DNA from: Escherichia coli
Lineage (GTDB): Bacteria; Pseudomonadota; Gammaproteobacteria; Enterobacterales; Enterobacteriaceae
NCBI RefSeq assembly: GCF_044324875.1
Contig: NZ_CP172185.1
Reading direction: 5' to 3' (one strand)
DNA length: 64,000 nucleotides
The position numbers were made by a program, and so were the translations under genes. A model generated the notes under the pieces. The model was not told where the DNA came from and ran no database searches. It saw only the letters and a list, made by a program, of their open reading frames with translations. Positions 36,301 through 39,084 of the stretch are shown here, in pieces. Positions within the stretch are counted from its first letter, which is position 1; every line of letters begins with the position of its first letter.

Positions 36301-37149
36301 ATGGCGACATACCTTATTGGCGACGTTCATGGTTGTTACGATGAACTGATCGCATTGCTGCATAAAGTAGAATTTACCCCTGGGAAAGACACCCTCTGGC
36401 TGACAGGCGATCTGGTCGCGCGCGGCCCTGGTTCGCTGGATGTTCTGCGCTATGTGAAATCCTTAGGCGACAGCGTACGTCTGGTGCTGGGCAATCACGA
36501 TCTGCATCTGCTGGCGGTATTTGCCGGGATCAGCCGCAATAAACCGAAAGATCGCCTGACACCGCTGCTGGAAGCGCCGGATGCCGACGAGCTGCTTAAC
36601 TGGCTGCGTCGCCAGCCTCTGCTGCAAATCGACGAAGAGAAAAAGCTGGTGATGGCCCACGCCGGGATCACGCCGCAGTGGGATCTGCAGACTGCCAAAG
36701 AGTGCGCGCGCGATGTAGAAGCGGTGCTGTCGAGTGACTCCTATCCCTTCTTTCTTGATGCCATGTACGGCGATATGCCAAATAACTGGTCACCGGAATT
36801 GCGGGGGCTGGGAAGACTGCGGTTTATCACCAACGCCTTTACCCGTATGCGTTTTTGCTTCCCGAACGGTCAACTGGATATGTACAGCAAAGAATCGCCG
36901 GAAGAGGCCCCTGCCCCACTGAAACCGTGGTTTGCGATTCCTGGCCCTGTCGCTGAAGAATACAGCATCGCCTTTGGTCACTGGGCATCGCTGGAAGGCA
37001 AAGGTACGCCGGAAGGTATTTACGCGCTGGATACTGGCTGCTGCTGGGGGGGTACATTAACCTGCCTGCGCTGGGAAGATAAACAGTATTTTGTCCAGCC
37101 GTCGAACCGGCATAAGGATTTGGGCGAAGGAGAGGCGGTCGCGTCTTAA
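36301..37149 (+). CDS. apaH: Bis(5'-nucleosyl)-tetraphosphatase (symmetrical)
   Basis: 282 aa, [16 protein letters not shown], metallophosphatase GDLVARGP...GNHD. Confidence 0.93.
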
Positions 37150-37173
37150 CGCTTTACCATTCAGGGAGGAATA

Positions 37174-37773
37174 ATGGCTGACTATTTTGAAATACGTGCT
37201 GATTACAATCAGCACACCATCACGGTTTATCAGGCTTACAATGATGCAATCGCTGACGTCGCCGTACGTGACGGGCGATTTGACGCACCTTTTTCATTCA
37301 ACCGCATGACCTGGATTAAACCCTCTTTTATGTGGATGATGGAGCGTAGCAACTGGGGACTGAAAAAAGATCAACAACGCATTCTCGCAATCCGAATCAA
37401 ACGCACCTTCTTTGATACATTGCTGGAACAAGCGGTGCTAACTACGCCGGAAGCCCATGTCTACCCACATGCAGGAGTTTGGGAAACGTTATTTGCGCAA
37501 GCAAATGTATATGTTCAGTGGGACCCAGAACGCAGCATAAATGGCAAAAAACTGGAGCACCGATCATTACAGCTTGGTATTTCTCGTAACTTGATCAGTC
37601 AATTTAACGAAGACGCGATTGTTGCCATTGATGATCTGACGCCGCTGGTGCGAAAGTGTCATAACCTATTGATAAACGGCAAAACAACACAGGCGAAATC
37701 CTTCCTGCCGCCAGAAGAAATTTATCCTGTTAGTGCAGCTGCAAGAAAGGCTTTGGGAATGAAAAATTTCTGA
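37174..37773 (+). CDS. Hypothetical protein (199 aa), strain-variable, no family assigned
   Basis: Strong SD (gggagga) just upstream of ATG; starts 24 nt after apaH stop; lower GC than flanks; Trp-rich motif TWIKPSFMWMMERSNWG. Confidence 0.6.
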   Translation: MADYFEIRADYNQHTITVYQAYNDAIADVAVRDGRFDAPFSFNRMTWIKPSFMWMMERSNWGLKKDQQRILAIRIKRTFFDTLLEQAVLTTPEAHVYPHAGVWETLFAQANVYVQWDPERSINGKKLEHRSLQLGISRNLISQFNEDAIVAIDDLTPLVRKCHNLLINGKTTQAKSFLPPEEIYPVSAAARKALGMKNF

Positions 37774-37808
37774 GACAAATACGCGCCTATTAAGCGGAAA
37801 ATATCTAA

Positions 37809-38276
37809 GTGCGACAAATCAATGCCGGGCTTAATACCAGAGAAATTATTCTGGAAATGATTGACGAAGCAGATGAACCCCCATTTGCTGAGCAGCGAAC
37901 CTGGCATCGCAGGCGAATCACTTTTCTTTGTGATTGCATCAGCGTTGCTGTCGACTACGGCTTCTTCTGTTCTGTCTCTCAGCAGTCAATAATGAACATA
38001 ACCAGGATGGCTGAAGATGTATGGATAACAGAAAGTAAAACGACCCAACTCATTGATATCTGGCAACAACTTAAGCGGCTTTATCCGCCAAACATTATTC
38101 CCTGCACCCAGCAGTTACCCGCTAAAGAATTGCTTGAACTGCTACTTTCCAGTCCTGACGATCTTCGAATAATTGAAATCCCTGACATCATCGGTGATGT
38201 TTTTGATGACCAAACCTGGATTCGATTATTCAAAAAACACTTTGCTGATATTATCTTACTACGATGTAATGTGTAA
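37809..38276 (+). CDS. Hypothetical protein (139-155 aa depending on start), strain-variable
   Basis: ORF immediately downstream and co-directional with 37174..37773; AT-rich; start codon uncertain (non-ATG at 37809 or ATG ~37857). Confidence 0.4.
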   Translation: MRQINAGLNTREIILEMIDEADEPPFAEQRTWHRRRITFLCDCISVAVDYGFFCSVSQQSIMNITRMAEDVWITESKTTQLIDIWQQLKRLYPPNIIPCTQQLPAKELLELLLSSPDDLRIIEIPDIIGDVFDDQTWIRLFKKHFADIILLRCNV

Positions 38277-38574
38277 CAATCTAAAATACATCGCCAGACG
38301 ACAGACCAAAAAGAAAGTATTTAGCAGATACTCAACATTCTGACTTCTGTACAGAAATAGCAGAGTTTAAAAACTTAAAATTTCCGGTACTCATCAGAGA
38401 AACATCCTGTTTCTTCTGCAAGTTCATTTAATGCCGAGATGGCATCCTCGTTTACTTCAGTCCACTGTAGAGTGGCTTGAGGGTTTAGACCTACGCAATG
38501 AGCGCGACTCACAAAATCGCGCTCACTGGTAAAATCAGACGTCTTATCGTTCAATTTGTAGTCATAGCAAAAAC

Positions 38575-39084
<510 letters not shown>

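Follow-up and report, generated by a model that had tools for sequence, protein, structure and literature searches.

The folA–apaH islet of an Escherichia coli genome: probably a composite, partly decayed filling of a known hotspot and not a working two-gene system

The interval between folA and apaH in Escherichia coli is a site of variable gene content. One of its variants, as reportedly listed by Mine et al. (2009, Genetics 181:1557), is a large piece of DNA that carries a remnant of the ccdA antitoxin gene plus open reading frames (ORFs) of unknown function, and these ORFs are said to have been left without assignment. In the present study, this interval was examined in a stretch of 64,000 nucleotides (nt) of E. 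coli DNA (NCBI RefSeq assembly GCF_044324875.1, contig NZ_CP172185.1), which is referred to as the window. The interval holds an islet of 1425 bp (37150–38574), bounded by the end of apaH at 37149 and by folA at 38575, and the piece of DNA mentioned above is what we take to be the structure of this islet. The islet shares with the variants of the ccdO157 hotspot, as they are reported, the chromosomal position, the alternative states and the lack of mobility genes; no structural difference from them was recognized, and the present islet is a divergent allele. The plasticity of the region has been credited to Mine et al. (2009) by later papers (PMC3184786; PMC7167474; PMC7232551), and the spacer between folA and apaH in K-12 is 77 bp long (PMC7232551).

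The genes of the islet, termed ORF1, ORF2 and the ccdA relic, also have described relatives elsewhere. ORF1 belongs to DUF4291, which was predicted in a 2025 survey to be an atypical ADP-ribosyltransferase (ART) with the motifs QA[YF], WIK and [AS]IQ, and which is widespread in fungi (PMC12522546). The RhsP2 toxin has the catalytic triad R-Y-E and is inactivated by the substitution E1576Q (PMC12340436), and RNA 2'-OH ADP-ribosylation of the RhsP2 type is reversed by PARG-type hydrolases (PMC11833690). Distant relatives of ORF2 lie in arrays that have the architecture of the rAID-1 orphan-immunity clusters (Ross et al., bioRxiv 10.1101/471110). The third gene is related to CcdA of the ccdAB pairs of the F plasmid and O157.

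The islet is probably a composite and partly decayed filling of the hotspot, foreign in origin, rather than a working two-gene toxin–antitoxin or anti-phage system. A functional pair of ORF1 and ORF2 is argued against by the independent distribution of the two genes, the truncation or loss of ORF2 beside an intact ORF1, the lack of a matching defence model and the missing catalytic Glu of ORF1. The two genes were found together only at folA–apaH, in Escherichia and Superficieibacter. Among 80 genome loci of DUF4291, all of which were from outside Escherichia, an ORF2-type neighbour occurred at one (Superficieibacter). Moreover, the toxin candidate was not lost along with its supposed antidote: ORF1 was intact at 199 amino acids (aa) in E. 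albertii (locus L010), in which ORF2 had a frameshift near codon 26, and in E. coli loci L101–L103 (98.5% identical to L002), in which ORF2 had been cut independently to 94 aa. No model of PADLOC-DB matched any of the three islet proteins at E values up to 1, and no match for any of them was found in NCBIfam or PHROGs. All three genes descend from families of conflict systems, ORF1 having an ART-toxin-like fold, ORF2 belonging to an immunity-type family and the third gene being an antitoxin relic. The features of the locus are given below.

36301–37149, plus strand: apaH, the left boundary of the islet and the final member of the core operon pdxA-rsmA-apaG-apaH (ORF list, syntenic RefSeq loci)
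37164–37170, plus strand: Shine-Dalgarno sequence GGGAGGA of ORF1, 3 nt 5' of the ATG, which lies 24 nt past the apaH stop codon
37174–37773, plus strand: ORF1, 199 aa, a full-length DUF4291 protein, intact and under purifying selection
37809–38276, plus strand: ORF2, 155 aa from a GTG start, shortened at the N-terminus relative to the unnamed family to which it belongs
38375–38554, minus strand: ccdA relic, 59 aa from a TTG start (45 or 59 aa in RefSeq), 20 nt past the folA stop codon
38575–39054, minus strand: folA, the right boundary of the islet (ORF list, RefSeq annotation)

The core flanks comprise pdxA, rsmA, apaG and apaH on the plus strand and folA and kefC on the minus strand. The original prediction for this islet had been made from the letters of the window, and its boundaries, the coordinates of both plus-strand ORFs, the Shine-Dalgarno sequence and the 24-nt gap were confirmed by the ORF list and the sequence. 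Its impression that the islet is richer in AT than the flanks also held. The G+C content (GC) was 0.429 for the islet and 0.527 for the whole window, and GC at third codon positions was 0.445 for ORF1 and 0.410 for ORF2, compared with 0.60–0.61 for apaH and folA. The K-12 spacing, which had been put at less than 100 bp, agrees with the published 77 bp (PMC7232551) and with the K-12 rows of the megablast search. The count of two genes has to be corrected to three, as the ccdA relic on the minus strand had been overlooked. No integrase, transposase, boundary repeat or Rfam element was found in or beside the interval by the ORF list and the Rfam and repeat scans, as the prediction had stated for the first two, and the repeat scan revealed no insertion scar in the islet. 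The promoter and terminator scans of the islet gave little information; no terminator-like site was found between apaH and ORF1 by the terminator scan. ORF1 is probably co-transcribed with apaH because the gap is 24 nt long, has no such site and holds a strong Shine-Dalgarno sequence. The labels of the islet genes in RefSeq are "DUF4291 domain-containing protein", "hypothetical protein" and "CcdA family antitoxin"; with all three genes annotated, the term "undescribed" that the prediction had applied to the system does not stand.

The states of the locus were counted by megablast against 5426 complete E. coli genomes. The islet was present in 536 of them (about one in ten) at 95.6–98.9% identity, which bears out the expectation that it is accessory, horizontally acquired and missing from K-12. 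Its carriers include EHEC strains of O26 and O111. The remaining genomes carried ccdA–ccdB (many, as in O157:H7) or a short spacer (K-12 and others). The allele of the window was somewhat divergent: the complete genome that matched it best was 98.9% identical, most were about 96% identical, and proteins identical to those of the window were found on about 130 E. coli contigs. When the window was aligned with the O157 locus, the homology ended exactly at the apaH stop codon and restarted at 38571, 4 nt before the folA stop codon; between these limits, the alignable part was limited to 77 bp from the 3' end of ccdA, at 80.5%.

The islet occupied the same site in E. albertii, in divergent Escherichia lineages (including Escherichia sp. 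93.0816), the apaH of which was about 90% identical to that of the window, and in a record labelled E. fergusonii. In Superficieibacter electus, the gene order was apaH, DUF4291 (81% aa identity), a 218-aa ORF2 homologue (48%), PRiA4_ORF3 and folA, and this ORF2 homologue was full-length with the zinc ribbon of its family present. On another enterobacterial scaffold, the ORF2 homologue P0134 (189 aa, 56% identity) was the sole gene between apaH and folA, and DUF4291 was absent. Because the islet or parts of it occupy the site in several other lineages, the folA–apaH site is an old hotspot, and the empty-spacer state of K-12 may be derived. The PRiA4_ORF3 gene of S. electus (PF07929; L008:7558–8178, minus strand) stands in place of the ccdA relic. 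Exchange of the islet between lineages by homologous recombination seems to have occurred, since the ccdA relic of the window was 99.4–100% identical to those of L011, L012 and L013 although the apaH and folA genes of these loci differed by 4–10% at the DNA level. The synonymous divergence (dS) of ORF1 was about half of that of apaH.

ORF1 matched DUF4291 (Pfam PF14124) with an E value of 2.6e-68 over positions 1–180 of the 180 positions of the model and was thus a full-length member. A total of 7704 homologues were found at E < 1e-10, and ORF1 was 47–59% identical to proteins of Bacteroidota, Planctomycetota, Myxococcota, Actinomycetota and Chloroflexota. In an alignment of 46 DUF4291 sequences, 40 columns were invariant, and Y19, Q20, W47, I48, K49 and Q133 (ORF1 numbering) were invariant in all 46. 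The motifs of the family were all present in ORF1 as Q20-A21-Y22, W47-I48-K49 and S131-L132-Q133, and its Trp-rich motif TWIKPSFMWMMERSNWG was the invariant DUF4291 signature. The ORF1 model had an ART fold, for which the nearest fold was the RhsP2 toxin domain. A canonical triad that ends in Glu (H-Y-E, R-S-E or R-Y-E) was not found in ORF1, the third motif of which ends in the invariant Q133. Compared with the C-terminal ART toxin of RhsP2 from Pseudomonas aeruginosa (PDB code 7RT7), ORF1 had 10% identity, and the similarity was undetectable at the sequence level. The RhsP2 toxin sits at the tip of a secreted Rhs protein and comes with a cognate immunity gene, whereas ORF1 is a free-standing cytoplasmic protein with no fixed partner; likewise, the R-Y-E triad of RhsP2 contrasts with the Q-A-Y, W-I-K and S-L-Q motifs and the invariant Gln of DUF4291. 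Neither ORF1 alone nor its profile gave a usable match among PDB sequences, and nothing was found by a literature search for PF14124 and DUF4304. The ratio of nonsynonymous to synonymous divergence (dN/dS) of ORF1 among Escherichia alleles was 0.08–0.28. Among the members listed for its 90% cluster, all complete ones had 199 aa, and one "partial" entry had 197 aa. Because ORF1 is a full-length DUF4291 protein with low dN/dS and a uniform length of 199 aa, it is the only gene of the islet that appears clearly functional. As a putative ART, it may bind nicotinamide adenine dinucleotide (NAD+) and transfer ADP-ribosyl groups.

The surroundings of DUF4291 were evaluated in the 80 loci mentioned above. 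In Bacteroidota, DUF4291 lay within co-directional gene clusters that were rich in ADP-ribose-related genes, and the published links of DUF4291 to Macro, ARH and PTS_2-RNA (PMC12522546) were reproduced by the neighbourhood analysis. The neighbours included MacroD (12 loci), NADAR (11), KptA/Tpt1 (10), a DarG-like macrodomain (9), Sir2 (7), ARH (6) and the PARG-like TIGR02452 (5), and an ApaH/PrpE-like metallophosphatase was found at 6 of the 80 loci when the apaH of Superficieibacter itself was counted. No universal adjacent partner of DUF4291 was found among the 45 cleanly called loci, 20 of which had no same-strand gene within 150 nt downstream. Hence, the compact two-gene module that had been proposed is not borne out, as ORF1 has thousands of homologues and an ORF2-type neighbour at a single locus of the 80.

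Metallophosphatase genes of the ApaH/PrpE/Pnkp-like type occurred in the Flavobacteriaceae clusters L024, L033, L035, L039 and L043 and were directly 3' of DUF4291 in L039 and L043. A His_Phos_1 phosphatase gene of Listeria costaricensis (L009) ends 15 nt 5' of DUF4291. The enterobacterial adjacency of apaH and DUF4291 may be non-accidental because phosphatase genes adjoin DUF4291 in both Flavobacteriaceae and Listeria. In Aquimarina (L033 and L036), a TIGR02452 gene, which encodes a PARG-like macrodomain, ends 37 nt 5' of DUF4291; this arrangement may be a writer–eraser pairing, since PARG-type enzymes reverse the RhsP2-type modification of RNA. The gene of a 138-aa protein (L025:4610–5026; homologues in L021, L022, L023 and L030) lies directly 3' of DUF4291 in Chryseobacterium and Dysgonomonas. 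This protein occurred at 10 loci in all, elsewhere too within ADP-ribose clusters, and had no match in Pfam or NCBIfam. Furthermore, a DUF4291 gene (L113:1767–2390, plus strand; E 1.9e-64) forms a cassette in a polyimmunity array of human-gut Bacteroidales, in which it is placed between an Imm43 homologue and genes of the ORF2 family and Imm5. This was the sole such case in 46 ORF2-family loci from outside Escherichia.

ORF2 had no match in Pfam, NCBIfam, PADLOC or PHROGs, and Pfam was blank for the ORF2 family too. According to the profile searches, neither ORF1 nor ORF2 belongs to a characterised housekeeping family, in line with the original prediction. A phmmer search of ORF2 against 1.84 billion representatives returned only five proteins, and a profile search added members from Bacteroidales with lengths of 208–249 aa. 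The architecture of the family consists of an N-terminal zinc ribbon (CxxC..CxxC) and a DUF416/SsdAI-like helical domain. In the alignments, the zinc ribbon was missing from all Escherichia copies of ORF2, so that the full architecture is not found there. The Cys cluster of ORF2 was considered as a metal site and rejected because it is not conserved in the family, and the matches of P0134 to oleate hydratases in the PDB (E about 0.007) were judged to be chance.

The distant members of the ORF2 family were located in co-directional arrays of small genes, often with a tyrosine recombinase gene first, that contain Imm43, Imm5, SUKH/SMI1_KNR4, PoNi, Imm17 and ankyrin genes (L016/L017 and L098–L100 are among them). 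A scan of metagenomes gave 48 ORF2-family loci, most of which came from samples of the human gut. Comparison with the labelled genes of the arrays identified, by homology, a rAID-type recombinase at 14 of the 48 loci, Imm5 at 9, PoNi at 8 and Imm43 at 7. The homologues of ORF2 thus share with the rAID-1 clusters the recombinase-headed co-directional arrays with Imm43, Imm5, SUKH and PoNi. The ORF2 of the window is unlike these members: it is isolated in a spacer between enterobacterial core genes, and the zinc ribbon, the recombinase and the array are all absent. Next to the members of the family, no gene for a cognate toxin was found. The large neighbours that were inspected by eye did not resemble toxins; from their sequences, they were read as subunits of a V-ATPase, a protein like KAP-NTPases, a surface protein and a fusion of the SUKH-like type.

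Among Escherichia alleles, the dN/dS of ORF2 was 0.15–0.57. A premature stop at codon 150 was present in L012, in L013 and in a cluster of 149-aa proteins, and forms of 94, 119 and 89 aa were found on many large contigs. ORF2 is, to all appearances, a truncated orphan copy of an immunity-type family and is decaying.

The last 33 residues of the ccdA relic matched positions 39–71 of the 71 positions of the CcdA model PF07362 (E 3e-8), and the relic was 48% identical to CcdA-O157 with an internal gap of 14 residues. The CcdB-binding C-terminal region was retained, which places the relic in the CcdA family. The N-terminal DNA-binding strand was replaced, and 38 N-terminal positions of the model were unmatched; a ribbon-helix-helix domain was not recognized. 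The C-terminal 27 residues were well conserved relative to CcdA-O157, and the relic has the same place 3' of folA. It differs from the CcdA of ccdAB in the loss of the DNA-binding strand, of the 14 internal residues and of ccdB, for which no ORF was found in the interval. The relic offers few sites, over which its dN/dS lay between 0 and about 1, and its evolution appears to be roughly neutral.

In the proposed explanation, the hotspot is filled alternatively by the ccdAB-O157 pair, by an empty 77-bp spacer or by the present three-part islet of unrelated genes. ORF1 would be a non-lethal enzyme that handles NAD+ or ADP-ribose on RNA or nucleotides and not a toxin, because Gln replaces the catalytic Glu and no neutralising partner accompanies it. 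It would be kept without a dedicated partner of this kind, with probable read-through from the apaH operon, and would be akin to the Bacteroidota enzymes encoded in clusters beside Macro, NADAR, ARH, PARG-like, Sir2, KptA/Tpt1 and ApaH-like phosphatase genes. ORF2 is a decaying orphan copy of the immunity type, and the minus-strand ORF is what is left of a ccdA antitoxin gene.

Several points weigh against this explanation. In structure, ORF1 comes closest to a bona fide toxin, and the adjacent ORF2 is immunity-like; ORF1 is basic, with an isoelectric point (pI) of 8.6, whereas ORF2 is acidic (pI 4.8); and the adjacency of the two genes is conserved in two genera. ORF2 may keep some function because its dN/dS is below 1 and most of its alleles are full-length (155 aa). 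The equivalence of Q133 to the position of the catalytic Glu was mapped via a published structural alignment (PMC12522546). In addition, a crude ORF caller served for the DUF4291 loci of high GC, and the adjacency counts use the 45 cleanly called loci. Given the toxin as structural neighbour, the contrast in pI and the conserved adjacency, the two genes might be a toxin–immunity pair, in which an RhsP2-like RNA ADP-ribosylating toxin is bound by the acidic helical ORF2. Such a pair is unlikely, however. Separate events in E. albertii and E. coli have disrupted ORF2 and left ORF1 intact, and the zinc ribbon is absent from all Escherichia copies. The scarcity of ORF2-type neighbours (1 of the 80 loci), the lack of a close downstream gene at 20 of the 45 loci and the position of P0134 alone between apaH and folA also argue against it. 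Furthermore, ORF1 has Gln where RhsP2 requires Glu, and its identity of 47–59% across phyla is unlike that of fast-evolving toxins.

The islet could also be viewed as a set of orphan antidotes without any offensive gene. Protection would come from a CcdB-binding piece of ccdA, from an immunity protein of the orphan type and from DUF4291, which would act enzymatically in protection or repair against ADP-ribosylating, RNA-targeting toxins. ADP-ribose hydrolases can serve as immunity enzymes against RhsP2 (PMC11833690). DUF4291 clusters with several erasers of ADP-ribose and forms a cassette in the Bacteroidales polyimmunity array of L113 (E 1.9e-64); the ccdA relic keeps its toxin-binding C-terminus, and the combination of an absent neutralising partner and high conservation fits an enzyme with a universal substrate. 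We know of no ART-fold protein that removes ADP-ribose, which counts against such a role. Moreover, DUF4291 was found in an immunity array at only 1 of the 46 non-Escherichia ORF2-family loci and at none of the 80 DUF4291 loci, in which the immunity-type neighbours were only the ORF2 homologue of Superficieibacter and one opposite-strand SMI1_KNR4-like gene. ORF2 and the ccdA relic evolve under relaxed or near-neutral conditions and give no sign of current protective use, and this view is likewise judged improbable. An undescribed anti-phage defence system formed by ORF1 and ORF2 would agree with the accessory nature, the low GC and the variable presence of the islet and with the occurrence of ART enzymes in systems of defence, DarTG and CmdTAC among them. 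It is nevertheless very improbable, as PADLOC and PHROGs gave no match, the neighbours are core genes with no defence island, the two-gene architecture is not conserved and DUF4291 is widespread in fungi (PMC12522546). The toxin–antitoxin or anti-phage module of the original prediction thus survives in the ancestry of its genes in conflict systems; it does not survive as a module, given that the pair is not obligate, ORF2 is truncated or lost and PADLOC has no match.

Within the preferred explanation of a composite islet, a more specific role for DUF4291 may be considered, although it is rather unlikely. DUF4291 might be a conserved non-toxic ART-fold enzyme that takes part in conflicts over the ADP-ribosylation of RNA or nucleotides and is functionally coupled to ApaH-type phosphatases. 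In this role, it could serve in repair or immunity; alternatively, it could work as a Tpt1-like transferase, with a phosphate group used in the attack on NAD+. If this were true, the apaH adjacency, the phosphatase neighbours in Flavobacteriaceae and the cassette in the Bacteroidales array would reflect one protective pathway.

The lead of an unrecognized two-gene system is considered closed, since the islet had been noted before among the variants of a well-studied hotspot, its genes are annotated in RefSeq and its behaviour is not that of a two-gene system. DUF4291 deserves attention as a large and highly conserved family whose closest structural relative is the sole RNA 2'-OH ADP-ribosyltransferase known so far, although the catalytic Glu of that enzyme is missing from DUF4291. 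An easy genetic test system is provided by E. coli strains that either carry or lack the DUF4291 gene. ORF2, for its part, defines an unnamed immunity-type family that is common in the immunity arrays of human-gut Bacteroidales.

A further observation concerns the right flank of the islet. IS1/IS26 have carried the folA gene together with the ccdA relic to plasmids of the IncY and IncF/IncN types, beside blaTEM-1, and to a second chromosomal site. The moved copies of folA were found in pPK5074-69kb (L004), in pSW2367-1 (L005) and in the EF7-18-58 chromosome near aldB/yiaW (L006), and one of these three segments also includes most of ORF2. All moved copies encode one FolA variant, WP_130560492.1, and the moved chromosomal folA could raise trimethoprim tolerance.

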